63,140 nucleotides of DNA from Alkalispirochaeta sp. Its GTDB lineage: Bacteria > Spirochaetota > Spirochaetia > DSM-27196 > Alkalispirochaetaceae. The notes under the pieces are model-generated. The model did no database searches, was not told the DNA's origin, and saw only the letters and a list, made by a program, of their open reading frames with translations. The translations under genes and the position numbers were made by a program. The DNA lies in NCBI GenBank assembly GCA_965242725.1, contig CBDESZ010000011.1, forward strand, positions 1 to 63,140. The letters run 5' to 3'. Position 1 is the first letter of the stretch. The number at the start of each line of letters is the position of its first letter. Shown piece after piece: positions 42,039 through 63,140 of the stretch.

Positions 42039-42989
42039 ATGAAACTTGAAGGAATAAACCACGTCGCAATTATCGGAACGGGGATGATCGGTTCGAGCCA
42101 GGCGGCACTCTTTACGGGTAACGGGTACAAGACCACGATGTATGCGCGGAGCGACGAGAGTGCGGCACGAGGCATACAGCGATATGAAGGTTTCTTTGAT
42201 GTTCTCCTTGAAAAGGAACTCGTTTCCAAAGAAGAGGCGAAACGGTGCAGACGGTACCTGCATACGACACAGGATTACAAGGATATCGCGGACGCGGATT
42301 TCATTATTGAATGCGTTCCCGAGGATCTGGAGTTAAAGTACCGCGTCTACGGTGAAATTGAGAAACATTGTACAAACTTCAAGGCCGTGATATCCACGAC
42401 GTCCGCAAAATCGGCCGATGACCTGGCCAAAGGATTTACCCGTCACAAGGACAAGATCATGGTCGCCCACCCCTTTTATCCGCCCCACCTTATTCTATTT
42501 GTGGAAATCGTAAAGGGGACGGAAACCTCGGCCGAGGCGGTACAGTTTGCCTACGACATACTTGAATCATGCGGACGAAAACCCATCATCGCAAATAAAA
42601 GTGTCCCCGGTTTTGTTGCCAACCGGTTACAGCACGCCCTCGTACGGGAAGCGGCGTATATGGTTGATCAGGGTATCGCTTCCGCCGCGGACGTCGATAA
42701 GGCGCTGATGCACAGCTTTGCTCCGCGATATTCCGTTGTGGGACTCTTTGAACACCAGGACGCGGCCGGTCTCGACATGGTGAAGAGTATTCAGGACTAT
42801 CTCGTACCCAGCCTGTGTTCCTCCACAAAGACGCCGGATCTCATCACCGGACACGTGAAAAAGGGCGAGCTCGGAATGAAGACCGGAAAGGGAATCCACG
42901 ACTGGACGCCGGAAAAACAGAAAGCCTTTCATGAGAAAGCCGCGGCGCCGTATTTCAAGTTTTTCAACTGGGATATTCCCGCCGAATAA
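42039..42989 (+). CDS. 3-hydroxyacyl-CoA dehydrogenase family NAD oxidoreductase
   Basis: IIGTGMIG, IIECVPED..LK, HPFYPPHL, PGFVANRLQHA, GMKTGKG. Confidence 0.9.
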   Translation: MKLEGINHVAIIGTGMIGSSQAALFTGNGYKTTMYARSDESAARGIQRYEGFFDVLLEKELVSKEEAKRCRRYLHTTQDYKDIADADFIIECVPEDLELKYRVYGEIEKHCTNFKAVISTTSAKSADDLAKGFTRHKDKIMVAHPFYPPHLILFVEIVKGTETSAEAVQFAYDILESCGRKPIIANKSVPGFVANRLQHALVREAAYMVDQGIASAADVDKALMHSFAPRYSVVGLFEHQDAAGLDMVKSIQDYLVPSLCSSTKTPDLITGHVKKGELGMKTGKGIHDWTPEKQKAFHEKAAAPYFKFFNWDIPAE

Positions 42990-43086
42990 TACCGCCTCAT
43001 CGCCGCATCAGCGTCCGGTCGTAGTACGGTTTGCCCGTGGCGTCGTACAGACCGACGCCACAGACCCGTTCACGCCGGCGTCTACC

Positions 43087-44163
43087 TTAATCCGGGTTTG
43101 GTACGACGTAGTCGCGGATCATTGAAACCAGCTCATCATAGCTGGCGGTGAAAGAACGCAATGTCCGTGCCGTCGCCCCGTAGGAGTCAAACTCGCGTGT
43201 CGTCATACCATCCGGCTCCCAGGCGCGCTGGAAATCGGGGAACTTCGATAGAAGTCGATCGAGAAAACGGGGCGGGACCGGTCTGTCAATCAGATCCTGT
43301 ACGGGGACGTCCGATTCATTGAACCGCACCGCCCACTTATACGGTATGGTCACAACCAGATCTCCACCGATGAACTCCGACCAGTGATAGTGGTTACGGT
43401 ACGCTGCAGCCATAAGGCGAGAGCGATATTTTCGTTCACGGAAGATTCGGTATGCCCGTTTCATCACCGCAACGCCCGCCCATTCCAGGCATTCCGGGTC
43501 CACGATGATGTCGTCTCTGGAGGCGACAACCTTCAGCCAGTCGTCTACACGCCCGACCATCACCACACAGTTGGCAGATATGTTGTCGATCGATTTCCCC
43601 TCGCGCAGGCGACGATCCAGTCCTCGTTCAACCGCCTCTGCAGCGGCGATTACCTGGGATACGCTGAACGAGACGGTGGCGGTTATACTCACCCCGTGAT
43701 AGGTCGCTTCTTCAGCGGCGGCGATCCCCGCCGCCGTCGCCGGCAGCTTGACGGTAATGTTGTCGGCCAGCCCATGGAAATGGACCGCCTGTTTCACCAT
43801 TGTGTCACTGTCGCGGAAATCACGCGGGTCCACCTGGATCGCGATGCGCCCTTTTTTACCGTTGTGGGCGTCGTAGACCGGTTTGAGCATTGCCGCTCCC
43901 CCTTGCGCAACCCGCTCAATCATTTCCCAGGCAATCGCCGTTTCCGAGGCGGTTGGCTTCTGTGCCGCCGCCTGATGAATGGGCCTGTCCCACACGTCTA
44001 TTTGCTCGCGTAATACGGCGTGCACTATCGTTGGGTTGGTCGTCGCTCCGGTCGCGCCGTGTTCCAGTGCGTACGTGAGATGGTCGGTGTTACAGGTATC
44101 GCTCCAATAGTCGGTTGCGGTGGTTTCGACCATCGTTAACAATGCGCTCTTTCCTTTTTTCAT
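43087..44163 (-). CDS. Transaldolase family protein
   Basis: YWSDT, GATTNPTI, NITVKLPAT..GI (Schiff-base Lys), TVSFS..Q, VGRVDDW. Confidence 0.88.
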   Translation of the reverse strand: MKKGKSALLTMVETTATDYWSDTCNTDHLTYALEHGATGATTNPTIVHAVLREQIDVWDRPIHQAAAQKPTASETAIAWEMIERVAQGGAAMLKPVYDAHNGKKGRIAIQVDPRDFRDSDTMVKQAVHFHGLADNITVKLPATAAGIAAAEEATYHGVSITATVSFSVSQVIAAAEAVERGLDRRLREGKSIDNISANCVVMVGRVDDWLKVVASRDDIIVDPECLEWAGVAVMKRAYRIFRERKYRSRLMAAAYRNHYHWSEFIGGDLVVTIPYKWAVRFNESDVPVQDLIDRPVPPRFLDRLLSKFPDFQRAWEPDGMTTREFDSYGATARTLRSFTASYDELVSMIRDYVVPNPD

Positions 44164-44170
44164 GGTTCTT

Positions 44171-46240: not shown

Positions 46241-46275
46241 TTTCGGCGAACCTCCGTATGAGACTTGGTGTTGTT

Positions 46276-48522
46276 TTATCCATGCAACGCTTCCCAAATG
46301 CGCTGCGGTGTAAGGGGAAGATCTCTTATTACGGCCCCGGTAGCCGCATACACGGCAGACGCTATCGCGGGTGATACGACGAGAATACCGCCCTCGGCAG
46401 CGCCCTTGGCGCCGTATGGTCCGGGACCGTCACCGTTTTCCACGTGGAGCGATATTAATTCACGGGGGATATCCTTGGTGGTGGGTATACGGTAGTCCAA
46501 TGCTCCAAGGTTTCGGACACGTCCCATCTCATCCATGATGTACTGTTCCATGACGGTGTGTCCGATGCCCTGGACCGCTCCGCCGTCATCCTGCATCGCC
46601 ACGTGTTGAGCGTTGAGTGCCCGCCCGATATCGGCAACCGTAACCAGCTTGTGCAACACCATCACGCCCGTTTCACGGTCAACTTCAACTTCCACGGCGG
46701 TACATGTGACTTCGTAAAAGGCTGGGGTTCCGTTCAGCGCGTGGGACTCATCAAACTCTTTCCGGGCGGAACCGGTGCCGATAACCTCACCCTTTATCCG
46801 GTGGAAGCGTTCACCTACAACCTCGCCGAAGGTCTTTCGTTCACCGTCGACCTCAATAGTACCCGGCTCGACGATTGTCGCCGTCTTCCCATAGTACTCA
46901 GTCGCGATTTCCGCTACCTGTCGCGCGACATCGCGTGACGCCCTCAGGATTGCATTGCCCATGAAAACCGCCGACCGGCTGGCAGACGTCTGCAAATCAA
47001 AGGGCACACCCTGGGTATCACCCATGACGACCGTCACGCGGTCCGGCGAAATACCCAGCTCGTACGCCACAATCTGGGCGTAAATAGTCCGCGCTCCCTG
47101 ACCCATGTCGGAGGTTCCCGCGTGTACCGTTGCGCTCCCGTCGTAGTGCAGACGGACTATAGAATAGGAGGCACCGGTTGTCGGCCCGAATTTCAGTCCC
47201 AACGCCAATCCGCGCCCGCGCCCCGGCACAAGCGGTTCTCCCCAGCCGATCGCTTCCGCTCCCTTGCGAAGGGTCTGTTCCCAACGACCGTCGGCAGGTG
47301 GATCGTTGGGCATGAAGAGCTCTCCGTATTCGGGTAAATTCTTCAAGCGCAGTTCAACCGGATCGATACCCAGTTCGCGGGCGCCGGCGTCGATTTGGCA
47401 TTCCACGGGCCAACTCATTTGGGGAAGGCCGAATCCGCGCATGGCGGTGCTTGGCACCGTATTGGAAAAGACCCCGCGTGCGAGGACACGCAGGTTTGGT
47501 ACCCGGTAGGGACCGCCGGCACCGGCGTAACTTCCTTTGACGATGAGACGACCGGCGATGTCCTCGTACGCGCCGATCAGGTAGTTGATCTCCACGTCCT
47601 GGAAAACAAGCATGCCGTCTCGTCGGAAGCCGGTGGTGATATGAGCTTCCGCAGACGTACGACGTGCCGCCTGAAAGCTCTCCTCCAGGGTAAGCTCCAA
47701 TCGAAGAGGTCGGCCGATTTTTAACGATAAATAGGCGAGTAACGGTTCATACTTGGCGTGCTGTTTACCCCCGAATCCTCCACCAGGATCGGGAGCAATC
47801 ACCCGTACGCGGGAGAGCGGCATATCGAGAAACTCCGCAATAACCCGTTGCAGGTAGTTGGGGTGCTGAATCGCGCTATAGACGGTTATTCCGTCTCGCG
47901 TGGGTTCTACCGCGTAGGCAAACGGCTCAATCGCAAACTGGGTCATCATCGGGAACGTATAGTCGTTCTCCAGAATCACGTCCGCTTCCGCCGCGTCGAC
48001 GTTTCCCCATCCGTAGTGCCACTCGTTCAGGATATTGGAGTTTTTGAATGGGCTATCCCGTCGAAGCGAGGGATCCTGCACCAAAGGGGCATCAGGTGAC
48101 AGGGCGTCCGCCACCGTATACACCCCGGGCAGCTCCTCATAGTCCACCTTCACCGCAGCCGCTCCCTGCGCAGCCGTCCAGACGGTATCGGCGGCAACGA
48201 TCGCTACCGGTTCACCGTGAAAGGCTGTTTCGTCGACGGCCAGAATCGGTCGATCCTTATGTGCCGGACCAAACCGTTGTACCGTTGCCGGGAGATCCTT
48301 GCCGGTCAATACGGCACGTACACCGGGAATCTGCAACGCGGCACTCACGTCAACACGGTTGATCCGGGCTCTTCCACAGTTCAGATGGACCAACTTTGTA
48401 TGGAGTATATTCGGTATTTTGATATCGCCGACGTACCGGTATGCGCCGGCTACACGCTCCCAGCCACCGACGCGGTTTATCGGGCTTCCGATTCCACCGG
48501 CACCCGCTTCAACGCTACTCAT
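46276..48522 (-). CDS. Xanthine dehydrogenase family molybdopterin-binding subunit
   Basis: PGGGFGGK, TAMRGFG, DMGQG, SASRS, GPYGAKGAAE. Confidence 0.93.
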   Translation of the reverse strand: MSSVEAGAGGIGSPINRVGGWERVAGAYRYVGDIKIPNILHTKLVHLNCGRARINRVDVSAALQIPGVRAVLTGKDLPATVQRFGPAHKDRPILAVDETAFHGEPVAIVAADTVWTAAQGAAAVKVDYEELPGVYTVADALSPDAPLVQDPSLRRDSPFKNSNILNEWHYGWGNVDAAEADVILENDYTFPMMTQFAIEPFAYAVEPTRDGITVYSAIQHPNYLQRVIAEFLDMPLSRVRVIAPDPGGGFGGKQHAKYEPLLAYLSLKIGRPLRLELTLEESFQAARRTSAEAHITTGFRRDGMLVFQDVEINYLIGAYEDIAGRLIVKGSYAGAGGPYRVPNLRVLARGVFSNTVPSTAMRGFGLPQMSWPVECQIDAGARELGIDPVELRLKNLPEYGELFMPNDPPADGRWEQTLRKGAEAIGWGEPLVPGRGRGLALGLKFGPTTGASYSIVRLHYDGSATVHAGTSDMGQGARTIYAQIVAYELGISPDRVTVVMGDTQGVPFDLQTSASRSAVFMGNAILRASRDVARQVAEIATEYYGKTATIVEPGTIEVDGERKTFGEVVGERFHRIKGEVIGTGSARKEFDESHALNGTPAFYEVTCTAVEVEVDRETGVMVLHKLVTVADIGRALNAQHVAMQDDGGAVQGIGHTVMEQYIMDEMGRVRNLGALDYRIPTTKDIPRELISLHVENGDGPGPYGAKGAAEGGILVVSPAIASAVYAATGAVIRDLPLTPQRIWEALHG

Positions 48523-48988
48523 CGGTAACGGCTCCTCTGACCGCGTCAACAATACGGGCGTAACCGGTGCAGCGACACAAGTTACCTGACAACCCTTCGC
48601 GAATCTCGTCCGGCGTCGGATCGGGATTGTTCAACAACAGATAGTGAGCTGCCACAACCATTCCCGGCGTACAGAAGCCGCATTGTACCGCCCCCGCATC
48701 AAGAAAGGACTGCTGTAATCGTGCGCCCGCCGGAGTCGCTGAGACACCCTCTATGGTGGTTACGTCCCAGCCATCCGCTTCCGCCGCAAGAATAAGACAG
48801 GTATTTACCGCGTCGCCGTTTACAATGGCAGAGCAGGCACCGCATTCTCCCTCGCCACAGCAGCGCTTGCTGCCGATCAGATCGAGGGTATCCCGCAGAA
48901 AGGAAAGCAGTGTGAGATGGGGTGGGACCTCCCGATGGAATGTCTCACCGTTGACGGTAAGTGTGATCGGTATGAGCTGGTCGGCCAT
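48515..48988 (-). CDS. Xanthine dehydrogenase family 2Fe-2S subunit
   Basis: CGEGECGAC, QCGFCTPG, GNLCRCTGY. Confidence 0.95.
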   Translation of the reverse strand: MADQLIPITLTVNGETFHREVPPHLTLLSFLRDTLDLIGSKRCCGEGECGACSAIVNGDAVNTCLILAAEADGWDVTTIEGVSATPAGARLQQSFLDAGAVQCGFCTPGMVVAAHYLLLNNPDPTPDEIREGLSGNLCRCTGYARIVDAVRGAVTDE

Positions 48989-49905
48989 TACACTTCCCCG
49001 TCCGTAAAATCGGCAAGACGTTGATGAGCGGACGCGAGGACCCGCCGACCGATTGCCAACAGCATCGCCGTCCGATACGCCGCACTCGCACGGACGTCGT
49101 CTATCGGACTGGTTTCAGCAATCAGCGACGCCAGCGCCGCATCGCGCCGTTCAGGGGATACCGCTGGATCAGCCAATGCGCCGCTCGTGTCGCGGACAGT
49201 TATCGGTGTCGGCCCGACCGCGCCAAAGGCAAATGTCACCGTACCGTCGCTTTGTATCAGACACGCCATGTTGATTGAGGCGAGATCGACTCCGTGCCGG
49301 CGGGTAAGGCGCCCGAACGCCGCGCCGTGTGGAGTTTTCTGTAATGGCAGGGTAATCGAAACGATCAATTCATACGGTTTGCGGATGGTCTTTCCCGGCC
49401 CCAGAAAAAACTCGTCCAACCGGACATCCCGTGATCCCTTCGGTCCGACAAGTGTTACGACGGCTCCGTGAACGAGCATAGGAGGGACGGTGTCGGCTGC
49501 GGGGGAGGCGTTACCGATATTTCCCGCCAGAGTCGCACGATTTCGAATTTGAATGGAACCGACGGTAGAAGTCGCGTCAACGAGCGCCGGAAACCGTTGT
49601 TGAATTTTCCGGTCACGGAGAAGCCGCGCAAGGACAACGCGGCCGCCGATTGTAACGTGGTCCTCTTTCCAGGTAACGGCGTCGCTAATATCACATACAC
49701 CCTTAATATCGATGATCGCCGCGGGGACAATCTGCATTTTCTGAAACCGTACCAACAGGTCGGTACCACCGTTCAGAACTCGTGCGTCCGAGCCGTAACG
49801 TTCCAGTATCGCTATGGCCTCCGAAAGGGACTCCGGCCGCTCAAAGTGTAGCTCGTTCAAGTCTTCTCTCCCGGGCCGTTCATTCAAACGTTGATCATTC
49901 TGCAC
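48988..49905 (-). CDS. Xanthine dehydrogenase family FAD-binding subunit
   Basis: GGTDLL, GSIQIRNRATLAGN..NASPAAD, PIDDVRASAAYR. Confidence 0.94.
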   Translation of the reverse strand: MQNDQRLNERPGREDLNELHFERPESLSEAIAILERYGSDARVLNGGTDLLVRFQKMQIVPAAIIDIKGVCDISDAVTWKEDHVTIGGRVVLARLLRDRKIQQRFPALVDATSTVGSIQIRNRATLAGNIGNASPAADTVPPMLVHGAVVTLVGPKGSRDVRLDEFFLGPGKTIRKPYELIVSITLPLQKTPHGAAFGRLTRRHGVDLASINMACLIQSDGTVTFAFGAVGPTPITVRDTSGALADPAVSPERRDAALASLIAETSPIDDVRASAAYRTAMLLAIGRRVLASAHQRLADFTDGEV

Positions 49906-49942
49906 TGCAGAAAAGGATCACCCCACCTCGCAGGCCCGTATT

Positions 49943-49984
49943 ATCGATTATCGATAGATTACCACCGATTATGTGGTGTGTCAA
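49943..49984 (-). promoter_or_regulatory. Promoter with operator copy 2
   Basis: Minus strand TTGACA-17-TAATCT; ATCGATTATCGAT at 49943-49955. Confidence 0.75.
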
Positions 49985-50042
49985 CAGAGACTTGAGTAGG
50001 AGATAAAAAGCGGATACCGTATATTCCTTGAAAGAGGTGCCA

Positions 50043-50714
50043 ATGAATCAGGAGACAGTCTACGCAACGTTGGATACCATGCTCGCACAACCCCGCCTCC
50101 GGAATCTCCTTACAACGGTCCGCTCTGCGTTTGAAGCTCAGGGAAGTATCGGTCACGGCTGGGAGCACGTGCGTCGTGTTATTGTAAACGCCGCGTGGAT
50201 CGGTCCGCTGGAACATGCCGATATGGATATCGTGATGCCTGCGATAATTCTTCATGATATCGGTTTCATCACGAATCCTGATGAACCCAAAAAGCATCCG
50301 GAACACGGCGCGCGGGAGTGTCGCCGTTTTCTTGACGGGTGGACCGAGGATCAACAGGAACAGATTTCACAATGTATTCTCAAACACAAAGCGGCGTATC
50401 CCGGTTACGGCGGCCTTGAACCGGCGACACGTGAAGAAAAGGTCGTCTGCGACGCCGATCAATTGGATAAGTTCGGTTGGATCGGCGTCACTCAGATGGT
50501 AAAGGTATACGTAGAGTATGGCATCAATGGATTGGAGCGTTACAAGCACCTTTCCGGTATCGTAGAAGGCTTACGTCATTTGAGTGAGATCCGCCTTTAC
50601 ACGGAAACCGGCAGACGTATTGCCGCGGAACGATCCGAACCTGACCATTTAGCCACCGCCCGCGCCCTGGAGAATGAACTGGCACTCTCGGAAAACTGGC
50701 GCGAACCGGTTTAA
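50043..50714 (+). CDS. HD domain metal-dependent phosphohydrolase
   Basis: GHGWEHVRRV, ILHDIG, H..HG, DADQLD. Confidence 0.88.
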   Translation: MNQETVYATLDTMLAQPRLRNLLTTVRSAFEAQGSIGHGWEHVRRVIVNAAWIGPLEHADMDIVMPAIILHDIGFITNPDEPKKHPEHGARECRRFLDGWTEDQQEQISQCILKHKAAYPGYGGLEPATREEKVVCDADQLDKFGWIGVTQMVKVYVEYGINGLERYKHLSGIVEGLRHLSEIRLYTETGRRIAAERSEPDHLATARALENELALSENWREPV

Positions 50715-50722
50715 GAATATAC

Positions 50723-51421
50723 CTATTCGTCCTCGTTTTTTTCGGGATCGTCGGAATCCTTTGATTCGAGACTCTCGACGATCGGTTTACCCACACTCTC
50801 TATATGTTGCCTGATCGCTTCTGCCGCCTTATCAGGATCACGGGTCTGCAACACCTCTAACAGCTCAAGATGCCGCTCCGCGATTTCTACCGGGTCCATC
50901 TTGGAAATACTTCCAGTCATCAACGAATAGCTGCCGAATTGCAGGTTGTCGTAAATGCGCAGGATCAGCTTATTACCGGACTCTCGGATCAGCGTCTTGT
51001 GGAACTCGATATTGAGCATGGTTCGGTGGGGAATATTTCCCTGCCGACCCGCTTCTACCATTTCATCTACAATCTGCTTCAGTTCTTCTATCTGCTCGTC
51101 GGTAATCTTGGGCGCAAGCTGCCGGATCGAAAGAGATTCGAGGGCCGCACGCACGGTGTAGACTTCCCAGAGATCCTGTTTGGTAAACGATCGTACCGAA
51201 ATCCCCTTGAACGGCTCACTTTCAAGGAAGCCCATCGCAATGAGGCTGCGCAGCGCCTCTCGTATCGTCGTCTGGCTGACGTTGAGCTCTTTGGCAAGAG
51301 TGCTTTCCACAATCTTGTCGCCGGGCTTGTAACGACGATAGAAAATATCTTCGATGAGCTGTTCTTTGATTTGCTCGCTTATTACAACTCTGAAGTTATT
51401 CTTTTTATTCGATCGGGGCAT
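50723..51421 (-). CDS. GntR (FadR/FCD) family transcriptional regulator
   Basis: PGDKIVE..LAKELNVSQTTIREAL, RAALE, NIEFH, ERH. Confidence 0.94.
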   Translation of the reverse strand: MPRSNKKNNFRVVISEQIKEQLIEDIFYRRYKPGDKIVESTLAKELNVSQTTIREALRSLIAMGFLESEPFKGISVRSFTKQDLWEVYTVRAALESLSIRQLAPKITDEQIEELKQIVDEMVEAGRQGNIPHRTMLNIEFHKTLIRESGNKLILRIYDNLQFGSYSLMTGSISKMDPVEIAERHLELLEVLQTRDPDKAAEAIRQHIESVGKPIVESLESKDSDDPEKNEDE

Positions 51422-51513
51422 AAACCCGCCTTTTTCCATGTTTGATGGAAATATCATTACGTAAACCCGACTGTTTTTCAATAGATCGGGTTCCTGGTCA
51501 TATCGGCCTCATG

Positions 51514-51548
51514 AAAAAACACCGACGCCCGCGGACGGACGCCGGTGC
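51514..51548 (-). terminator. Probable intrinsic terminator after the PEP-utiliser gene
   Basis: Imperfect hairpin CACCG..CG/CG..CGGTG followed by a T-run on the minus strand. Confidence 0.5.
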
Positions 51549-51595
51549 CCGACAAATGAAACTTCCGTTATTGACCCGCGAAGTATCAGTCAATA

Positions 51596-53290: not shown

Positions 53291-53313
53291 ACTGCCTCCT
53301 GATATGAATAATA

Positions 53314-53361
53314 ATCGATAATCGATATTTGAATGATCACCTGCGAATCACGTTCTGTCAA
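53314..53361 (-). promoter_or_regulatory. Promoter with operator copy 3
   Basis: TTGACA (minus strand, 53356-53361); ATCGATAATCGAT at 53314-53326. Confidence 0.72.
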
Positions 53362-53771
53362 GAAAAAACACCCCGATCACGTGTTCTCGGCGTATGGCCG
53401 GAACAGGACGTGGGAAGGTCCCGTCGCATCGACATCACGAGAAGGGAGAGATATGGCTGTCTGAATACTATGGAGAAGGAAAGAGTGTCGGTACCGGTCA
53501 GGTATGTTTCGAATGGTTTCGAGGGCTGAGTCGATGAGCTTCAGGCACTTTGTCACCGATAGCCCCCCCGGAACTATAGGGGGTCGGAAGACCACAACCC
53601 GTTTTACTGCAGGATGCGTAGTACTGGAAACACAGTATAGGTGCAGCTATACCGGCAGTCATCCCGCAGTAACAATTCCCGCGTCGGACGACGAACGTCC
53701 GCGCATCCGTCTCTCTTCAAAGGTCTTCCGCCCCGCCTACGTCCACGTTCTTTTGGTGGTCAGGCCGGTGG

Positions 53772-54677
53772 TCAGACCAACCCTTCGCTTTGCAGAATCT
53801 TCTCTACCTCGTCCCACAGCAGCTGCGGGTCCCGGGCGCGCACCATGTAGTACGGTTTATCTTTGGCAAAACGGCTCACAAAATCTCCCCGTGCGGCCCG
53901 AAGTTCGTCGGTATCAACGATTGGCATCACAATCCCACCGGGGGAAAGTAACTGGTTAAGACCAAAGTAGTTCATCACGCTGTGATACGTCTGGTATTCC
54001 CGTTCAAACTCTTTCATGGGAATCACCTTTGTATCAAAATGTCCGTCCATACCGGGCATGATAACGAGGTCCACCGGGGCTTCACCTTCAAATGGAATAA
54101 ACTCCGGCTCCTTGTCAAAAAACTTGCGGACGCCTTCATCCTGACTCGGCAGGTCTGCGCGCTCCGTCCCCTTGGATCGAGGTCCTACATATACGTTCTT
54201 TGAGCCCGCGATAACCAGGCCGTCATCATCGGTTACCGTAGTCTCCGTTGATATGAGCAGGGCACCGCGACGACACCCCTCTATCTGGCCCATACTTTTT
54301 CCGTGGTTGTTTTCGCCACCGAGAAAGAGGATTGTCTTGTCTTTAAAACGCACCGAGGAAGAATGGAACGGATGTATGCCCTCCATATCCATTCGCGAGG
54401 CAAGCATCGTCACGACAATCTTATTGAGCTCACCCTGTTCCCATGCTCCTGACATTAACAGCTGGTTATTCTCGTATTTAATACCCTTTTTTTTACTCCC
54501 GCGATCCCAGATAACGTCCGGTTTTGTTTTCTGTACGTCCGAACGCACACTCACCGATGCCAATCGGTAATTGACAAAGTGCATGTCCTGTAAGACATGA
54601 TCCATATCGCCGGGTGACGTCACGTCGATTCTCAAAACTGCGTTACCACTGAGGATCTCTTCACTCAGAATACCCAT
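53772..54677 (-). CDS. Hypothetical protein with an HprK/PEPCK-like P-loop
   Basis: HPFHSSSV......LFLGGENNHGKS pattern; AAGGAG RBS. Confidence 0.6.
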   Translation of the reverse strand: MGILSEEILSGNAVLRIDVTSPGDMDHVLQDMHFVNYRLASVSVRSDVQKTKPDVIWDRGSKKKGIKYENNQLLMSGAWEQGELNKIVVTMLASRMDMEGIHPFHSSSVRFKDKTILFLGGENNHGKSMGQIEGCRRGALLISTETTVTDDDGLVIAGSKNVYVGPRSKGTERADLPSQDEGVRKFFDKEPEFIPFEGEAPVDLVIMPGMDGHFDTKVIPMKEFEREYQTYHSVMNYFGLNQLLSPGGIVMPIVDTDELRAARGDFVSRFAKDKPYYMVRARDPQLLWDEVEKILQSEGLV

Positions 54678-54691
54678 CGTTGTTCTCCTTC

Positions 54692-55768
54692 TTATTGTTC
54701 CAAATTCGGTTTGACCGCTATCTTCAGAGATTTTTCTTTGCGTTTTTCAAATATATCAAGTGCCTTGGCAAACTCATTCAAAGGGAACCTGTGCGTTAAC
54801 AGTGATTCGATACCAAGGTCATTCTCTTCAACCATTCGTATTGCCTGTTCGAGGGTGTTCGGGTTTGCCCGGCATCCAACCAGATCGATTTCTTCGAGAA
54901 CCAGTTTTTTAACCGGCAGGACCGCATCGCCCTCGGGGGGAATACCCACCATTGCAATACGCCCTCCTTTTGCAACGGCATCACAGGCGGTCCGAGTACC
55001 GGCGGGCGTCCCTGTGCATTCCAGCACACGGGGAGCTCCGCGCCCTCCGGTAAGTTCCAGAACGCGCTCCAGCACCGGCTCGGTGCGGTAATTGATCGGT
55101 ATGGCCCCGAGCTTCTCGGCTATCTCCAACCGGAAACCACTGCCGGTGGCGATGACCTTTCCCGCTCCCATGTGCCGCGCCAATACGATACCGAAAAGGC
55201 CCTGTGGCCCGGTGCCGTTGATCAGAATATCCTCACCCGCCTTGAGCCCGGACCGTTGCACCATGTGGAGTGCAATGCTCAGGGGATCCATCATCGCGGC
55301 GAGATCAAAGCTCATGTTGTCGGGAATGTGAGCAACGCTTTTTATGGTTGTACTGATGTACTGCGCGTACGCTCCCTGGGTTGTATGCCCGTACTGGCGG
55401 TGATTGAGATCGTGATTACCGTAGTTGCGACAGAGTGTGAATCGGCCGGATAGACACATGTCGCAGTATCCGCACCCGGAATGACTGATCCCGCACACCC
55501 GGTCACCGGCAGAAAACCCAAACCCGCCGGCAAGGGGATCGGCTTCAACGACCACACCGGCCCACTCGTGACCCGGTATAAACGGATACCCCGGTGGCCA
55601 AAAACCGGGAAAATCACCGTTGATGATGTGCGGATCGGTACCACAAATCGTGACACTTTCCACCCGGCACAGGAGCTCATACGGCCCCGGTTTCGGTGTT
55701 GCCACCTCTACCAGTGAGAAATCGCGCGGGCCGCTGAGTTGAATCGCCTTCATCGTTTTCGGAATCAT
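54692..55768 (-). CDS. Zinc-dependent alcohol/polyol dehydrogenase (MDR)
   Basis: ICGTDPH, PGHEWAG, CGYCDMC..G...C, GTGPQG. Confidence 0.93.
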   Translation of the reverse strand: MIPKTMKAIQLSGPRDFSLVEVATPKPGPYELLCRVESVTICGTDPHIINGDFPGFWPPGYPFIPGHEWAGVVVEADPLAGGFGFSAGDRVCGISHSGCGYCDMCLSGRFTLCRNYGNHDLNHRQYGHTTQGAYAQYISTTIKSVAHIPDNMSFDLAAMMDPLSIALHMVQRSGLKAGEDILINGTGPQGLFGIVLARHMGAGKVIATGSGFRLEIAEKLGAIPINYRTEPVLERVLELTGGRGAPRVLECTGTPAGTRTACDAVAKGGRIAMVGIPPEGDAVLPVKKLVLEEIDLVGCRANPNTLEQAIRMVEENDLGIESLLTHRFPLNEFAKALDIFEKRKEKSLKIAVKPNLEQ

Positions 55769-56805
55769 CGTGTCTCCTTTTCGTTCCAATGGACCATCGG
55801 TAAACCAGGTACCGGGGCGCGGAAGTACGGAATACGTGTGCCCTTGAGGGATCCGATATAGACCGTTCCCAGATCGGGACCACCAAACGTCACGCTTGCC
55901 ATCCACGGGGCAATGCCGCGTCCCGTCTTGAAGAGCAACTCAGAGGTGACGGATTTCTGGAAAAAGGCCTCGTCGAGCTGTCTGACCAGATCCGGATCAC
56001 CCTCGTCAAGCAGGGTGATGTGTTCGCCGTCCGGTGTGATCACCCACAACTTGTCGGAATACACATGTGTTCCCCATAGATTTCCGTAATCGTCAAAGGC
56101 AATCCCGTCCGGAAACGCTCCCGGACCAAGCCGGGACGGGCCGTATACCTCGCGGTCTCTCAGGTCGCCGTTTTTATCAACACGGTACCGCAACACGTTT
56201 CCACCCGTAGTCTGAACGACATACAGGTACTCTTCGTTGCGATCCATGCGTACCTCGTTTGTAAAATGCAGACCGTCGGCAACGATGTGGATTCCCCGTT
56301 GGTCGAAGCGAGCGATGTACCCATCGTCCAGATCAGGGACCAGGGCATCTATCCAATTCTTTACTTTCGTTGTAATGGTGATCCAGATCCGGTCTTTGGA
56401 GTCTCGTAAAACAAAATTGACTTTACCGATCGGTGTACCATCGATGGTATCAAAGAGCACCGTTGTCTCACCGGTGCGCGACATCTGCTCCAATCTATCT
56501 GTTCCGAAATTGGAAATAAGGATGTCACCGTTACGGGCAAAGGCAAGACCGTTCGGCAGCGTTCCGGCGGTGAAGCGAGACACTTCGTCAGCACTTGCGG
56601 TGAAATTCTCAGAAAGCTTCTGGGTCACTATTGACTGCGATCCGTCAGGTGATATCCGCATCACCCCGCCGCGCGCGTCCGCCGACCACAGCGTTCCATC
56701 GGGTTCCGCGAGAATACACTCCGGACGTTGCAGGTTTGAACCGATATAACCTACCTGGTCCGGCGAAATCTCGAAATCCTTGATCGGGTTTCTTGCCTTG
56801 CTCAT
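55765..56805 (-). CDS. SMP-30/gluconolactonase family beta-propeller
   Basis: RPECIL, PNGLAF, FTNEV, FPDGIAFD, ASVTFGGPDL.TVY. Confidence 0.9.
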   Translation of the reverse strand: MSKARNPIKDFEISPDQVGYIGSNLQRPECILAEPDGTLWSADARGGVMRISPDGSQSIVTQKLSENFTASADEVSRFTAGTLPNGLAFARNGDILISNFGTDRLEQMSRTGETTVLFDTIDGTPIGKVNFVLRDSKDRIWITITTKVKNWIDALVPDLDDGYIARFDQRGIHIVADGLHFTNEVRMDRNEEYLYVVQTTGGNVLRYRVDKNGDLRDREVYGPSRLGPGAFPDGIAFDDYGNLWGTHVYSDKLWVITPDGEHITLLDEGDPDLVRQLDEAFFQKSVTSELLFKTGRGIAPWMASVTFGGPDLGTVYIGSLKGTRIPYFRAPVPGLPMVHWNEKETR

Positions 56806-56810: not shown

Positions 56811-57209
56811 CTACCTCTGGAATGAATCGGTTTCCTCAAAGGGCACGTTCTCGTACATTTTGTAGTTATCAAGACCCGTCGGCGGGGCAAAAAAGCAGGC
56901 CACTTTCATTTCTTCCTCACCGGTATTTCGGATCATATGTACCTGCGCCTGTTCAAAGAGCACCGCCGTTCCCGTTTTCATCGACCGAATTTCGCCCTCC
57001 ACCCACGCTTCGCCTTCACCGGAAACGATATAAATGAGCTCTTCCCCCTCGGGATGGGAGTGAGCCGGTTGGACCGTCTCCCCGGGCATCACCCGGATCA
57101 CGCAGCTGGAAAGAAAACGCGGCTGCAACGTTTTTTCGTCGGCAATCCACCGGATGAATCGTCCGGGTATGCGTTTTTCTTCGACCTCGGACTCATGAAC
57201 AAGTTTCAT
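56811..57209 (-). CDS. Cupin domain protein
   Basis: PAHSHPEGEELIYIVSGEG, VHMIRNTG. Confidence 0.92.
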   Translation of the reverse strand: MKLVHESEVEEKRIPGRFIRWIADEKTLQPRFLSSCVIRVMPGETVQPAHSHPEGEELIYIVSGEGEAWVEGEIRSMKTGTAVLFEQAQVHMIRNTGEEEMKVACFFAPPTGLDNYKMYENVPFEETDSFQR

Positions 57210-57224: not shown

Positions 57225-57271
57225 ATCGATAATCGATAATTAAATGTATCATTGAGGGGACCGCCTGTCAA
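57225..57271 (-). promoter_or_regulatory. Promoter with operator copy 4
   Basis: Minus strand TTGACA-17-TACATT; ATCGATAATCGAT at 57225-57237. Confidence 0.78.
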
Positions 57272-57302
57272 TAAATACCGACGACGCATGACGCAGGATC
57301 CA

Positions 57303-58173
57303 CTATTTCTTCATCGAAGCGGTCATCCGCTGATACAGGGCGTTAACGTTGTTCTCGATAACGTGGTCGAGCATGTATTCCTGTCCGATGTCGACGTTGA
57401 AGCGTTTTCCGAAATCGGCATTTGCTTTGGCGAGACATTCTTCCTTTGTCCAGCCTTTTGCCACACCCACGGCGATAGCCGTTTTCCCATTCCATGAGAA
57501 AAGCTCTCTGTACGTAGAGTTGCTCTTTACCGCACACGTCTCCATGACCGGGAATCACGATATCCGCGTCGAGACCCATTAATCGTTCCAGCGACTCAAT
57601 CCACTGACGAATGTCGGAGACGTACAACCACGTCTGGCACCCATTAAAAACGGTGTCCGACGCAAAAACGACGCGTTCTTCCGGCACATAGACTGCCAGC
57701 TCACCCGGTGTGTGTCCCGGGGTACTGAGCAGCTCAAAGGTGGTTTCACCAACCTTCAGGGTCGTATCACCGGTGATAATCGTGTCCGGTCGATTGGGGT
57801 CTTCAAAATAGGTCTTCTCGTCCGGAAAAATGGAAATACCGTCCGGATCGTCCGTAGGCATCGCTTCCTTTGCATATTCAAAAGGGTTGATTTCCGGCGA
57901 CACCGTCATGAAATTGTCGGCGGTAACCTGGTGAGCTATCACATGTTCCGCCGACTTGAAATAGTAGTTACCAAAAATATGGTCAATGTGATATTCCGTA
58001 TTAATCAGATACCGGATCGGTCCGTGCTTTTCCGCTTCTTCACGCATTTTCACTGCGTGCGTTGGTAGTTGTGGTGTATCGATCACTACCACACCGTCGC
58101 TCGTGACGACGTATCCCGGATTACATCCGCGGATTTTTGTTTCTGCAAATACATTCTTCGTTACTTGTTGCAT
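57303..58173 (-). CDS. MBL-fold metallo-hydrolase (cyclase-like), +1 frameshift near 57487
   Basis: VIDTP, NTEYHIDH..GN, TPGHT, PGHG; C-terminus continues in ORF 57303-57545 (KTAIAVGVAKGW). Confidence 0.85.
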
Positions 58174-58202
58174 CGTCTATACTCCTCGAAAAATCTGTTC
58201 CT

Positions 58203-58242
58203 ATCGATAATCGATTATTATCCAGGACGTAACAATTGTCAA
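58203..58242 (-). promoter_or_regulatory. Promoter with operator copy 5
   Basis: Minus strand TTGACA then an AT-rich -10; ATCGATAATCGAT at 58203-58215. Confidence 0.75.
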
Positions 58243-58298
58243 CCTGTCGAACATCGTCTCACCGGTTCCATTACGATTCTCCGACGGCGAGTTTCTTC

Positions 58299-58362
58299 TT
58301 GACATTATCCACAACCGGGCTGAATATGGTTTATATCGATTATCGATTACCGATAATCAATT
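58299..58362 (+). promoter_or_regulatory. Promoter with extended operator copy 6
   Basis: TTGACA at 58299; ATCGATT ATCGATT ACCGATA ATCAATT at 58335-58362. Confidence 0.75.
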
Positions 58363-58489
58363 TACTATTGGTCTTTGGTTCAATCGTGGTTGCATTCGTA
58401 AATAGCTGAAAAAGGAGGTTTTCGGGAGGTCTAGGACGTATTCACCGCAAGAATCGAGGTCAGTTTCAGATTTATTCAGGGAGGTGTAT

Positions 58490-59790
58490 ATGAAATCAAT
58501 CAGAAAATCTATTTTGGTTGGGTTGGGTGTCCTTTTGATGACGGCCGTGGTATTTGCCGGTGGTCAGGGGGAATCAGGTGATCAGGCGGCTGGACCGATC
58601 AAAGTCGGTCACTTGACGTATCATACCGGCGCTTTTGCGGATGTAGGCCCGTGGTTTGACGGTATCACTGAAGTTACCATTCAGATGATAAACGAAGACC
58701 CTCCGCTCGGTCGACCTCTGACCGCAATTCATCAGGATATTGGTACAGTTGGTGAAGCTCAGGCTGCGCGAAAACTGGTCGAACGAGACCGTGTACAGGT
58801 CCTGCTTAACCCGGCACACGAGTACATTTCTTATCGGGACTGGATGCTCCTGTGGCAAAAAGACAATAACGGCCCCTTAATGCCCTCAGTCCACGGTGGT
58901 GGTATCCGGGGTGATATCGGCGGATCCCCTGATGAACCGATTATGCGGGGAGCCCCGATGGATTCCGGACAAGCCGTGGCAGCAGTTATCAAGGCGAAAG
59001 ACGAAGGTTCACAGCGAGTGGTCATCGTGGCGAGTGAAATCGAAGGTAGCCAGATGCAGCTTGCGGCGGCACTTCATGCCGCAGATGAGATCGGATTGAA
59101 TGTAATCGACTCATTCAGTTTTCAACCGGAGCTCGCCTCCTATAGATCAGAAGTAGCGAGAATTGCCCAGTCCAACCCCGATACGGTATTGGTTTTCAGC
59201 CAGGCGCAGGATGGCGGTACGATCGTCAAACAAGCGGCTGAATCGGGTCTCTCAGTCCTTATCATAGGGACAACCGAGTGGCTTGGTGAAGCGTTTCCCG
59301 ACACCGCGACCTATGACGCGATGGCGCAACACAAGAACGTCTGGATTTCCGGTTTCAGTTATGTTGAAGGTCCCGCGTACGATTTCTACGAACCGTATTG
59401 GACGGAATCTGAATATGCTGATCTTCAACCGGCATCCAACTCCTACAACATCCAGTACTGGGACGTCCTGACGGTCACGGCTCTGGCAATCGAGTTGGCC
59501 GGCTCCCTGGATGCCAACGATTGGGTCCCGGCGGTTCGTTCGGTCCTCAATGCCTCCTGGTCGCAAAGTCTACACCTATCCGGAAGCATTGGCGGCAATC
59601 CGGGCGGGAGAAGAGATCGATTACGATGGTCCCCACAGGGCGTATTTGAGTACGGTCCTACCGGCATGGTTTCCGGTCTCTACGGCGTTTTTTGAATGGC
59701 GCCCGGGACACGAACTGGCGGAAGTGGCGCGAGTCGACGGACAACGCGTACTCCAACTGGACCAGGGGTGTATATTAATACTCCTTCGTA
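58490..59790 (+). CDS. Branched-chain-type ABC substrate-binding protein, several frameshifts in the 3' end (end approximate)
   Basis: Signal FAGGQGE; PPLGRPL, SYRSEV; C-terminal parts alternate between ORFs 58484 and 59511 (PPGRKVYTY..AL.AIRAGEEIDYDG). Confidence 0.82.
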
Positions 59791-59820
59791 ACGTAATCGT
59801 CAGTTTCTATAATGACGTGC

Positions 59821-59852
59821 AAGGTAGCCTCCGTTGGAGGCTACCTTTTTTT
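59821..59852 (+). terminator. Rho-independent terminator
   Basis: AAGGTAGCCTCC-GTT-GGAGGCTACCTT followed by a T-run. Confidence 0.85.
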
Positions 59853-59915
59853 GCGTCTATCCGGTGAGCAATTGTAGATGGGATGTGTGGGATGTGTGGA
59901 ATCGAATAAGACGTA

Positions 59916-60609
59916 TTAGATACGGTATCCTTCTATAACCGTTTCCAATGAGCAGTTGGTGGCGTCATCAATCATGAAGATCTTCCCCAGACTCAGTATC
60001 ATCACACGGTCGGATATCTCAAGGGCTTTGGCGGCATTTTGCTCTGCAAGCATGACGCTTACGTTTTTCTTTTCGTGAATTTCCTTGATTTTCTCAAAAA
60101 AATTATCGACGTACAGCGGTGACAACCCGGAGGTGGGCTCGTCCAGAAGCAGCAGCGCCGGGTCCTGCATCAGCGCCCGACCGACGGCAACCATTTGCGC
60201 TTCTCCCCCGCTGAGGGTGCCGGCTTTTTGATTCAGGCGCGCTACAATATCAGGAAACAGTTCATAGACCTCTTCCAGTCGTTCCTGTTTCGGTCGTTTT
60301 CCTACAAGGCTTCCGATCGAAAGGTTTTCGGAAACGGAGAGATCGGGGAAAATGTGATATTCCTGCGGAACCATCGCCAGGACCCCTGGCCGCGAGCATA
60401 TGCGATTCGACATTTGTTACATCTTCGCCACGAAAATGGATTTCGCCGCTTTTCAACGGCAGTAATCGGGCGATCGTTTTCATAAGCGTACTCTTCCCGG
60501 CGCCGTTTGCACCAAGTACGGCGTAAATCTCGTGCTTAACCTCAAATGTCAAATTATGAAGAACAGTCACTTCACCGTAGCCGCTGGAAATTTCGTTTAC
60601 ACTAAACAT
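59916..60609 (-). CDS. livF: LivF-type ABC ATP-binding protein, frameshifted at ~60385
   Basis: GANGAGKST in ORF 60262-60609; LSGGEAQM, LDEPTSGL, AEQN in ORF 59916-60413. Confidence 0.85.
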
Positions 60610-60611
60610 GG

Positions 60612-61370
60612 CTCTTACCTATATATTTTTCTACTACCGTCTCGTGACTTCGAATTTCATCCACCGTCCCTTGTATCTGAATTTCGCCCTCCGCCATAAA
60701 ATGGACATACTCGGAAAACATTCCAGATCAAGTCCAGATCGTGTTCGACAATGAGAATAGACATTCCTTCTTTGGCCTTCTGCTTCATCAACTCCATCAC
60801 CTTTTCCGTCTGGTCAATCGGCAATCCGACGGTCGGTTCATCCATGAGAAGAAATTTCGGCTTCAGGAGAAGACAACGGATGATATCGAGTAATTTTTTC
60901 TCTCCTGCTGAAAGGGCATTACCTTGTGGGTCCTCAAATCGGAAATAGTCGAGGTAATACGCTATCTCATCCTTCACTTCCCCGCGCAGTCGGTCGTCTG
61001 CTTTGCCGAGTCTCCAGAAGTGCTCGTACTTCTCAGACGCCAGAGATAGGAGCATGGAATCCATAATACTCAGATTGACAAAATCCTGAATTATCTGGGT
61101 TGTCCGTATTACGCCGAGTCGTGCTATCTCGTCCAGGCTGTACGCCGAAACATCGATATCTTCACCATTTTCACAGAAGATGACCTGTCCGGTATCGGGA
61201 GTGAGTTTACGCGTAATGACGCTCATCAACGTCGTCTTTCCCGCCCCGTTTGGTCCTATGAGTCCTTCGATACCGTGCCGACCCAACGTCAGCTCAGGAA
61301 TGTTGACAACCTTCCTGCCGCTGAAACTCTTGGTGACATTCTTTATTTGGAGTTTTCCATCGCTTTTCAA
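60612..61370 (-). CDS. livG: LivG-type ABC ATP-binding protein, frameshifted C-terminus (end approximate)
   Basis: GPNGAGKTT, LSAGEKK, MDEPTVGL, IVEHD. Confidence 0.83.
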
Positions 61371-61387
61371 TTATGCACCCCTCTCAA

Positions 61388-62289
61388 TCAGGACTCGGTC
61401 TGTTGTCGCGACCGATGCGTACCACCAAGAATACCCATTGGTCTGAACATAAAGACCAGGATCAGCAGCAGCCCATACAGCATCAATTTTACGACCGGAA
61501 CGAGCTGTGCCGCCTCCGGTGGTATAGGAACAAAAGTCTCTATGAGAATGTCAAAGATGCCGACCGTAACGACCGCGCCGATCATCCCGCCCAGGACATG
61601 CCGCCGTCCACCAAGCACCAGCGCGATCCAGACGGTAAAGGTCACACCCGGACCAACCATGCGGGGTACGAGAAAATGGACGCCGCCGGCATTAAGGGCA
61701 CCGAGAAGACCGATGACCGTAGACGTAGCGGTGAAGAACACCAATTTCTCGCGTACGGTATACTTGCCGAGTCCCCGTGCCATAACCTCGTTATTCTGAA
61801 TCGCCAACAGAAGCCGGCCGTAGGGTGAGCGTTCCAATCGATGGGCATACCAGATCAAAGCACCGGTGGACGATGATCAAAATGAGTAAATACACGATAT
61901 CGGAATACCGTCCGACTTCAACAGGAAACGGAACAGAAACCGATCCCCACAACACCCTTGGTCAGCCATTTTCTCTGTGGTGATGAGGTACTGAATGATC
62001 GTCGCAAAACGCAAGCGTCGAAACGAGAATTGATTGCGGGTCGAGCTCCAGAATCATCTTTCCCAGCAGCCACGCCAGGACGCCGGTCATAATGGTCGCG
62101 GCGAGCAATGCCGGAAGATACGGCACATTGTACTGCAGGAGTAACACCGCGAAGGGCGTACATACCAAAGCCCCAGAATCCCACGAAACCGAAGTTCACA
62201 ATACCGACCACACCAAACTGAAGGTGAAGTACCGTTGCCATCGCGACGTACATAACCAGAATACTTATCGAAAATATGAAATAGGACAT
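61388..62289 (-). CDS. livM: LivM-type ABC permease, several frameshifts
   Basis: LQFGVVGIVNFG (62289 ORF); SPYGRLLLAI, ALVLGG, FRPMGILG (61858 ORF). Confidence 0.8.
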
Positions 62290-62292
62290 ACG

Positions 62293-63140
62293 TCAGCTCC
62301 GCACCTTCTTGTACTTCAAGATCACCATGAAGACGGCAAGGACGATGATCTGGCCGTACAACGGCTCGGTGATGAGCGTCATTCCCGCGACAACAATGCC
62401 TGCGGCAACACCGGTTGCCAGGGCGCCGCGAACGTTTCCCACGCCACCGACTATGGATATCATGATAATTATCAGGATCTGTCGCCATCCAAGGAGATAG
62501 TTCACAAACGAAAAACACGCCGAAGAAGACGCCCGCGAGGCCGCCCGAAACTCCCGCGATGAACCAGATCAGGATAGACACCTTGGTGGGATTGATTCCA
62601 CTCACACGGGCGAGTTCCTCGTTGTTCGCGAGGGCACGCATCATCTCCCCGTAATTTGTATGATAGATGAACAGATAGAGAGCTACCGCCGTCACCGCGA
62701 CCAGTACGAGCGCGACGACTTGCACGCTGGTTACACCGACTCCCAGAATATGGAGATACCGGGGAGCGGCACCTTCAAACTGGTAGAGCCGACTGCCGAA
62801 GAACAGTCGCGATCCATACCGAAGAAAGAAGGACAGTCCAACCGAGAGAATAATCATTTCCGTCGGACCGACGCCACGTCTGAGAGAGGGCCGGTATACC
62901 AGTAAATAGGTAATAACGCTGAGACAGCCGGTGAGCAGTGCCGCCGGTATGATTGAAGAATAGAACCCAAGCCCCAGGACCGTGTTAATCAGGACGGCAA
63001 AATACGCACCAAAGGTCAGATTTTCCGCAAACGCTACGTTTATAAAACCATTTAAATAATAGACAAGCGTGAATCCGGCCGCCGCGAGAATAAGCGGCGC
63101 CGCTTCGAAAAGTCCCAGAATCAAAGCATTTGAAATGAAC
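62293..63140 (-). CDS. livH: LivH-type ABC permease, frameshifted; start at or beyond the window edge
   Basis: GFTLVY..GFINVA, GEMMRALA..ELARVSGIN; C-terminus IVGGVGNVRGAL in ORF 62293-62505. Confidence 0.8.

Follow-up and report, generated by a model that had tools for sequence, protein, structure and literature searches.

A GntR-associated regulon in an Alkalispirochaeta genome that combines half of a dikinase with molybdenum hydroxylases and may serve oxygen-independent catabolism of a hydroxylated heterocycle

Gene content and extent of the cluster

The window analysed here is the whole of contig CBDESZ010000011.1 (C11; 63,140 nt) from a 4.3-Mb metagenome-assembled genome (MAG) of Alkalispirochaeta sp. 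(G000; 91.8% complete), whose closest relatives are labelled Spirochaeta. From position 42039 to its end, the contig carries a catabolic gene cluster in which the histidine-bearing subunit (H) of a phosphoenolpyruvate (PEP)-swivel phosphotransferase stands with a molybdenum (Mo) hydroxylase trimer, several hydrolases and oxidoreductases, and a LIV-type ATP-binding cassette (ABC) transporter. Our results support the view that this cluster is a real, co-regulated and conserved regulon. Its genes, with strand and basis of assignment, are as follows, those on a second contig of the same genome being marked C7:

42039-42989, plus strand: 3-hydroxyacyl-CoA-dehydrogenase-family NAD oxidoreductase (3HCDH; Pfam)
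43087-44163, minus strand: non-canonical transaldolase-family Schiff-base enzyme (TAL; residue alignment)
44171 to about 46240, minus strand: non-canonical transketolase-family thiamine diphosphate (ThDP) enzyme (TK; residue alignment)
46276-49905, minus strand: first Mo trimer (Pfam, NCBIfam)
46276-48522, minus strand: molybdopterin subunit of a xanthine-oxidase-family hydroxylase, 'type A' (MoL; Pfam, NCBIfam)
48515-48988, minus strand: 2x[2Fe-2S] subunit (Pfam)
48988-49905, minus strand: FAD subunit (Pfam)
50028-50714, plus strand: HD-domain phosphohydrolase (HD) with intact H...HD...D motif (Pfam)
50723-51481, minus strand: GntR/FCD regulator (Pfam)
51596-53290, minus strand: H subunit, PEP-swivel phosphotransferase (Pfam, NCBIfam, alignment)
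53772-54677, minus strand: orphan P-loop protein (GxxxxGKS) without Pfam match (fold comparison)
54692-55768, minus strand: Zn-dependent alcohol/polyol dehydrogenase (Zn-ADH; Pfam, NCBIfam)
55765-56805, minus strand: SMP-30/gluconolactonase-family lactonase (Pfam)
56811-57209, minus strand: cupin (Pfam)
57309-58173, minus strand: metallo-beta-lactamase (MBL)-fold hydrolase with TExHxDH motif and a frame break near 57482 (Pfam)
58484-59774, plus strand: LIV-type substrate-binding protein (SBP) with frame breaks near its end (Pfam)
59916-63140, minus strand: ABC ATPases and permeases, continuing on C7 (Pfam)
C7:477-1670: major facilitator superfamily (MFS) gene
C7:1691-5343: second Mo trimer
C7:5399-7738: PpdX, a 779-aa open reading frame (ORF) resembling pyruvate phosphate dikinase (PPDK)

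Every gene named in the initial annotation was found among the ORFs, in the family stated there (Pfam, NCBIfam). The extent of about 21 kb given there has to be enlarged: C11 ends in 361 nt that match C7:1-362 at 98% identity, and the cluster runs for about 8 kb further on C7, where the MFS gene, PpdX and the second Mo trimer (44-56% identical to the first) are located. In a genome of the same genus (G183), a single contig holds the second trimer and the MFS gene in the same order, followed as in G000 by the ABC genes, MBL, the cupin operon, H, GntR, HD, the first trimer, TK and TAL, with PpdX about 6.5 kb past TAL.

Single extra bases, in 11 places, cause the frame breaks of MBL, SBP, ATPase 1 and the permeases; they were checked against contigs from four runs of one sample (depth 2-2.8), which is probably the source sample; the breaks in ATPase 2 and in a Mo subunit on C7 fell outside this check. 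The extra bases are missing from the same-sample contigs, so the covered breaks are assembly errors and a decaying cluster was rejected for them. One of the same-sample contigs spans 46744-56193 with zero differences from C11, and the junction between the FAD and HD genes, which lacks an ATP-grasp gene, is thus real.

A shared operator

A 13-bp palindrome, ATCGAT-W-ATCGAT, is present in seven exact copies in the 4.3-Mb genome, all within the cluster on C11 and C7, compared with about 0.56 copies expected from hexamer frequency. With one mismatch allowed there are 10 matches, the added ones being the site at 41984, an overlapping copy and one intragenic match on contig C4. The sites in the cluster are:

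41984-41996: one-mismatch copy upstream of the 3HCDH gene
49943-49955: between the divergent FAD and HD genes
53314-53326: upstream of H, conserved in G183
57225-57237: upstream of the cupin operon
58203 and 58335 (58203-58347): two copies between the divergent MBL and SBP genes
C7:398 and C7:7821: copies on C7

The operator is conserved in the intergenic alignments with G183 and recurs in most related spirochaete loci; it was not found in loci L073, L075 and L081/82, nor in the Acidobacteria locus L033. The cluster GntR likely binds this operator, and ATCGATWATCGAT is a candidate target DNA. The shared operator, together with the co-occurrence of the members in other genomes, bears out the earlier suggestion of a co-regulated catabolic cluster, and a defined operator with its regulator offers a handle for an inducer search.

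Conserved core across genomes

With H as query, 53 related loci were found in GTDB representatives, as well as 11 H-bearing genomes among 401 Spirochaetia genomes including G000, while from metagenomes the best 37 of 80 H loci were used (L092-L128). Pooled with Thermomicrobium roseum and eight spirochaete regions, and leaving out L096 as a duplicate of L007, these give 98 loci, some genomes contributing two and kin not being independent.

Among the 66 loci of at least 12 kb, a Mo trimer or an aldehyde oxidoreductase (AOR) stands beside H in 61 and the ATP-grasp subunit (I) is present in 50. Less frequent are a short-chain dehydrogenase/reductase (SDR; 33), a second HD type (30), a cyclase (29), the P-loop protein (24), Zn-ADH (15), MBL and cupin (14 each), TK, TAL and lactonase (10 each) and 3HCDH (3). 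Loci combining H with a Mo trimer or AOR span Spirochaetia, Chloroflexota, Acidobacteriota and others, T. roseum carrying a compact version, and in 11 of the 98 loci an AOR accompanies the Mo trimer or stands in its place. The 3HCDH gene is accessory (4 of 98 loci, in the clusters of G196, G154, L092 and L097). Across the 98 loci, MBL (17) and the cyclase (34) are mutually exclusive, as are the two HD types, which suggests that the members of each pair stand in for one another at one step. Among the genes conserved around H, no oxygenase was noticed.

Half of a dikinase and its missing partner

H consists of an RPH-like substrate domain and a C-terminal His-swivel, and has no ATP-grasp domain (alignment, Pfam). 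Its catalytic-type motif, TDSGGVLSH with His522, fits T/SxxGGxxxH, and the histidine is invariant in 50 aligned rows. The phosphotransferase is thus only one half of an enzyme, the usual other half of which was not found in this genome, a point missed in the initial annotation. In a 21-row tree the H clade is separate from PpsA and from CreH- and HpeH-like rows with support of 100/100; named members come from Moorella, Thermococcus, Zestosphaera, Bathyarchaeia, Tepidanaerobacter, Bacillus and Acidimicrobiia, of which we take Moorella, Thermococcus, Tepidanaerobacter and Zestosphaera to be anaerobes. Cultured carriers of the clade include Thermomicrobium roseum DSM 5159 and Moorella thermoacetica Y72.

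Dikinases of the two-component type phosphorylate a phenolic hydroxyl at the expense of ATP, which goes to AMP and Pi. One study describes HpeHI/AcvAB, CreHI (with the HD phosphatase CreD) and PpsAB as two-part dikinases, reports that HpeH on its own moves phosphate between aryl substrates, and poses as an open question why phenolic catabolism begins with phosphorylation (PMC12167813). The cluster resembles these systems in its H protein, with an RPH-like domain and a T/SxxGGxxxH His-swivel, and in the adjoining HD phosphohydrolase. It differs in that H forms a clade of its own at about 25-27% identity, in that no PEP-synthase-type ATP-grasp I subunit was found in G000, and in its partners, which are Mo hydroxylases here and carboxylases or P450 there. 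By its architecture and motif, H is the substrate and histidine half of a two-part small-molecule dikinase, and the HD phosphohydrolase, whose gene also flanks creHI-like genes in L087, would have a CreD-like role.

The I subunit was searched for with a Chloroflexota I subunit as query (E<=1e-25) in 59 distinct H-bearing genomes and had no match in five of them (G000, G183, G374, which equals G401, G154 and G420); some of the 54 positive genomes may hold full PEP synthases instead of free I subunits. At the FAD/HD junction, where G000 has none, L007 has an ATP-grasp gene. Three of the genomes without I (G000, G183 and G374) are PpdX-positive, with H, HD and FAD genes in frame and operators kept, the H gene of G374 being split over two contigs.

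PpdX as a candidate phosphoryl donor

PpdX has a His domain (with His121) and a PEP/pyruvate barrel with canonical PPDK motifs intact, followed by a winged-helix-like C-terminal extension of about 200 aa (residues 575-779). ATP-grasp is absent from all seven spirochaete copies, and PpdX is not a complete pyruvate phosphate dikinase. Traced by its extension, PpdX is present in six of the 11 Spirochaetia genomes that have H and in none of the remaining 390, and additionally in G402. The operator lies 53-96 nt upstream of PpdX in all seven genomes (four exact, three with one mismatch). The gene adjoins the cluster in G000, G012 and G196 and lies nearby in G183; in G070, G374 and G402 it was found on a different contig. 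Of the seven operator-bearing genomes, two were counted as having it on contigs apart from the cluster.

The wider family numbers at least 305 proteins, of which Acidimicrobiia contribute many and Desulfosarcina ovata one, and the 120 best relatives of PpdX, often from Acidimicrobiia, are all without PF01326. A third type of donor beside H, in L110 and L121, joins ATP-grasp and His domains to the same C-terminal domain, in L121 with the operator upstream. L110, L119 and L121 had been considered as PpdX loci and were rejected as ATP-grasp and His fusions, the one in L119 being cut by the contig end. In Diaphorobacter the extension is encoded by a gene of its own, flanked by an H-type gene and a truncated PPDK, and it is also found in a similar catabolic cluster of Rhodococcus pyridinivorans.

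From these arrangements, the extension may act as an adaptor through which H can be served by different phosphoryl donors, PEP being the one used in this cluster. That PpdX phosphorylates H from PEP is a possibility to which we give somewhat less than even odds. In the boldest form of this reading, held at similar odds, the H clade might represent plug-in phosphotransferases with interchangeable donors, fed by PEP through PpdX in this cluster, with the C-terminal domain as a general adaptor to truncated PPDKs. If this is true, PpdX and H would make up a PEP-driven small-molecule kinase for a heteroaromatic hydroxyl that is independent of the phosphotransferase system (PTS), and a reversible PpdX could pass the product phosphoryl back to pyruvate, cutting the ATP cost of anaerobic ring activation. 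A precedent is dihydroxyacetone kinase DhaKLM, in which PEP supplies the phosphate for a small molecule through a histidine relay. Enzyme I of the PTS is reported to phosphorylate rifampicin in vitro (PMC13099321).

No paper on a PpdX-type protein or on this cluster family was found in the open-access literature searched. VadK (Rv1127c) is a truncated PPDK with the operon partner Rv1126c (PMC13400623). PpdX is similar in being a PPDK-derived protein without one catalytic end, and differs in retaining the opposite half (His domain and PEP barrel) and in its fused winged-helix-like domain of about 200 aa. The C-terminal domain may be Rv1126c-like.

The same domain of about 200 aa was also observed, free or fused, beside PEP-utilizing genes or truncated PPDKs in plasmid clusters of Diaphorobacter, Rhodococcus and Methylibium (L180:6227-10111, L182:1352-11653, L179:6177-8558 and L181:7436-8558). 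These clusters hold Rieske oxygenases, P450 and mutase genes, and the domain is often annotated as MarR.

The P-loop protein has a PEP carboxykinase (PEPCK)/HPr-kinase-like fold, with PEPCKs as best matches (TM about 0.47), according to an alignment-based predicted fold that was used because the single-sequence fold had a pLDDT of 36. It is present in 34 of the 98 loci, and a profile comparison with PpdX gave no similarity.

Molybdenum hydroxylases and the 3-hydroxypyridine precedent

In Ensifer adhaerens HP1, HpdA turns 3-hydroxypyridine into 2,5-dihydroxypyridine only together with orf9 (PPDK-like) and orf10 (a PEP-utilizing mobile subunit); that report finds no intermediate and leaves the role of the dikinase open (bioRxiv 10.1101/2020.01.08.898148). 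The present cluster is like the 3hpd cluster (HpdA1-4 with orf9/orf10) in that a xanthine-oxidase-family Mo dehydrogenase is clustered with a PEP-utilizing mobile subunit, a GntR regulator and an ABC transporter. It differs in being without a PPDK_N (orf9-type) gene and in adding two type-A Mo trimers, MBL, lactonase, the P-loop protein, atypical TK and TAL, and PpdX. Neither an HpdA3-type SRPBCC subunit nor the O2-dependent maleamate genes hpdBCDE were found in the window or in C7:1-8000. The earlier statement that the set matches no named pathway thus stands for the cluster as a whole, which is not among the published pathways searched, and falls for its core, which matches the 3hpd module of dikinase and Mo dehydrogenase.

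The best plasmid matches of MoL (38%) are in Variovorax Mo clusters, next to which type-A MoL also sits in a FastTree phylogeny (95 SH-like, no outgroup; a weak placement); the genes neighbouring these Variovorax clusters look like maleamate-pathway genes. A second clade of Mo subunits, 'type B', which is 32-35% identical to the MoL of the window, occurs alongside type A or in its place in several spirochaetes (L071:10526-12859, L069:15091-17487 and L083:6780-9113).

Atypical transketolase, transaldolase and other enzymes

The cluster TKs and TALs were compared with E. coli TktA, TalB and FsaA, with TktA numbering for TK and TalB numbering for TAL. All seven cluster TKs retain the ThDP and catalytic residues H26, H66, H100, D155, H261, E411 and H473. 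Acceptor binding in TK involves R358, H461, R520 and D469, of which only R520 stays in the seven proteins, R358 being lost and the others changed (H461 to A, D469 to N); the TK on contig C6 of the same genome keeps all canonical residues. The cluster TAL retains the Schiff-base K132 as well as D17, N35, R181 and R228. All 11 TAL-family rows keep the Schiff-base lysine, R181 and R228 and share E96 to Q and F178 to M, with A or G at position 226 (S226 to A in the window). The acid-base pair is E96/F178 in TAL and Q/Y in fructose-6-phosphate aldolase (FSA), and the Q/M pair of all 11 rows matches neither.

These residue losses make a sugar-phosphate reading doubtful, and a pentose-phosphate feeder was rejected on the same non-canonical residues. 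The cluster TK and TAL, both accessory genes, probably act on unphosphorylated keto-acids, judging from their residues; such keto-acids would be consistent either with products of ring opening or with a polyol side chain, which the substrate possibly carries. The C2/C3 transfer proposed earlier for this locus accordingly shows no sign of a sugar-phosphate branch, while the companion proposal of ring hydroxylation and phosphorylation survives, hydroxylation after phosphorylation being the best model. The atypical subfamilies may by nature carry out ketol transfer on unphosphorylated substrates, which would be of biocatalytic interest. A second TAL-family gene with Q96/M178 lies on contig C31 of G000 (L059:16163-17251; 57%), near inositol/sugar-type genes and a split TK; there is no exact operator on C31.

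Plasmid searches with MBL, TAL and TK gave no characterised neighbour, and SBP, queried with the intact G183 copy, had no PDB relative at E<=1e-5. The best NCBIfam models for 3HCDH, PRK06129 and FHMPC_DH, score 177-178 bits versus cut-offs of 347 and 500, and its best PDB match (4om8) scores 124 bits versus 122 for hydroxybutyryl-CoA dehydrogenase.

Proposed pathway and competing explanations

From gene content, co-occurrence, the shared operator, the residue changes and the missing I subunit, all of which were directly observed, we infer the reactions and the substrate class. The regulon would be a GntR-controlled, oxygen-independent catabolism of a hydroxylated heterocycle of the 3-hydroxypyridine or 3-hydroxypyranone type, a reading to which we assign a probability of about 0.5. 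The ABC and MFS systems would import the substrate, and H, with its dikinase architecture, would phosphorylate a ring hydroxyl through His522. As no I subunit was found in G000, H would most likely be charged by the co-regulated PpdX (PEP <-> His~P <-> aryl-O-P). One or both type-A Mo hydroxylases would then, following 3hpd genetics, insert water-derived oxygen beside the ring heteroatom, and HD would take the phosphate off unless H recycles it. MBL, in whose place a cyclase-family hydrolase is found elsewhere, and the SMP-30 lactonase could open a lactam or lactone; Zn-ADH and the 3HCDH-family enzyme may adjust redox, and the atypical TK and TAL may cleave an unphosphorylated keto-acid. In favour of the ring class are the precedent of 3hpd, a transporter of LIV type, the swap of cyclase and MBL, and the weak link between MoL and Variovorax. 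A PF04199 cyclase has been hypothesised to open 2,3,6-trihydroxypyridine (PMC6214936).

A number of observations weigh against this proposal. The best PDB match of MoL is the alpha subunit of 4-hydroxybenzoyl-CoA reductase, a reductase; the likeness to 3hpd is one of shared families and of the published description; and H is only about 25-27% identical to PpsA, CreH- and HpeH-like proteins. In the conserved set no omega-amidase or maleamate genes were seen. The pAO1 PKC was not among the best 40 of 153 plasmid matches of the cluster cyclase. With regard to the donor, intact I coexists with PpdX in G012, G070, G196 and G402, which excludes a strict replacement, the 46 H genomes from outside the spirochaetes that were tested all lack the PpdX extension, Acidimicrobiia commonly have PpdX-like proteins, and the P-loop protein is, from its predicted fold, another candidate donor for H. 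G154 and G420 have neither I nor PpdX; in G154 the cluster is broken, with HD missing residues 1-103, FAD missing residues 1-104 and a type-A MoL not found, and G420 is a small fragmented MAG with H at a contig end. The genome of G000 itself is 91.8% complete, the genomes behind the PpdX and locus counts are related, so that the counts are not independent, and the substrate would be placed at class level.

The same pathway might run with PpdX reversed or as a side branch, the phosphoryl being recovered as PEP or PpdX forming a split PEP synthase with I, while in G000 the donor for H is the P-loop protein or some other dikinase acting in trans, or else the loss of I has left a crippled pathway. 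We regard this as rather unlikely. Intact I in four of the seven PpdX genomes would agree with it, as would the P-loop protein in every spirochaete locus except L008 and the full PPDK and 998-aa ATP-grasp protein encoded by G000; however, three genomes without I keep H, HD and FAD in frame together with their operators, whereas truncated HD and FAD and the lack of a detected type-A MoL are seen in donor-less G154, and a crippled pathway is at odds with the covered frame breaks of G000 being assembly errors. It is slightly more doubtful that the substrate is non-aromatic, such as a sugar-derived lactone, enol or keto-acid (reductone, furanone or inosose-like), with the Mo or tungsten (W) enzymes as aldehyde oxidoreductases and the dikinase phosphorylating an enol or alcohol for elimination or trapping. 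The lactonase, the polyol-type Zn-ADH and TK/TAL in the cluster point that way, together with the SDR of related loci, which is closest to gluconate 5-dehydrogenases, the AOR in place of or beside the Mo trimer and the 57% TAL paralogue in the inositol/sugar-like region of C31. Yet sugar-acid-like genes are accessory (10-15 of the 66 long loci) compared with H and Mo/W enzymes in 61, the transporter is of LIV type and not of sugar type, and the only genetically tested module of H, I and Mo enzyme acts on 3-hydroxypyridine.

Anaerobic degradation of vitamin B6 (pyridoxine or 4-pyridoxate) appears improbable. Vitamin B6 is a 3-hydroxypyridine with a free C6, MBL, SDR and aldo-keto reductase (AKR) families occur in B6 pathways, and the best PDB match of 3HCDH is FHMPC dehydrogenase. 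Against this, the FHMPC_DH score is 177 versus the cut-off of 500, no more than 4 of the 98 loci carry the 3HCDH gene, 4-pyridoxolactonase is not among the 22 PDB matches of MBL, and pyridoxal 4-dehydrogenase is not among the best 60 of 161 SDR matches; orthology to these three enzymes of B6 degradation pathway I is not supported. Very improbable, and largely refuted by the distribution of the operator, is a chance island of unrelated catabolic genes: accessory content and order do differ between phyla, but the operator is at every transcription unit with an exact match nowhere else in the genome, and the members recur, in changed order, in 10 other Spirochaetia genomes and in other phyla.

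In the proposed oxygen-independent module of phosphorylation followed by hydroxylation, the core is of an already known kind, and the genomes bearing PpdX without I are what is new here. The cluster family takes the dikinase and Mo module into anaerobes and archaea, which suggests that a widespread heterocycle is broken down by an oxygen-independent route not yet described. It bears on two stated open questions, namely the need of HpdA for a dikinase and phosphorylation-first phenolic catabolism, and the PpdX-bearing genomes without I would provide a small in-vitro system on whether such kinases run on PEP.

Neighbouring genes and further observations

Tm-1-like (UPF0261) genes were observed near the cluster in 7 of the 98 loci, from Chloroflexota, T. 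roseum and one spirochaete (L060:12493-14596; L008, L011, L012, L013, L015 and L016), accompanied in L060 and L008 by a PEP-hydrolase-like TIM-barrel gene. Carboxyl-transferase genes adjoin the cluster in three spirochaete genomes (L066:4706-10974, L069:4469-6004 and L077:12767-15731), two of which also have an aldehyde dehydrogenase there, and G183 has a decarboxylase-beta-like membrane gene; these neighbours possibly represent a downstream acyl-CoA decarboxylation step.

Just upstream of the cluster, the window contains an AlkD-like DNA alkylation repair gene, a gene with an HU-Ig domain and two ORFs (41120-41911, 39982-40740 and 37254-39664, respectively). The two ORFs, of 419 and 310 aa, have no Pfam match and a lower GC content. 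An AlkD-like gene is also found near H in four Acidobacteria loci, probably by chance.

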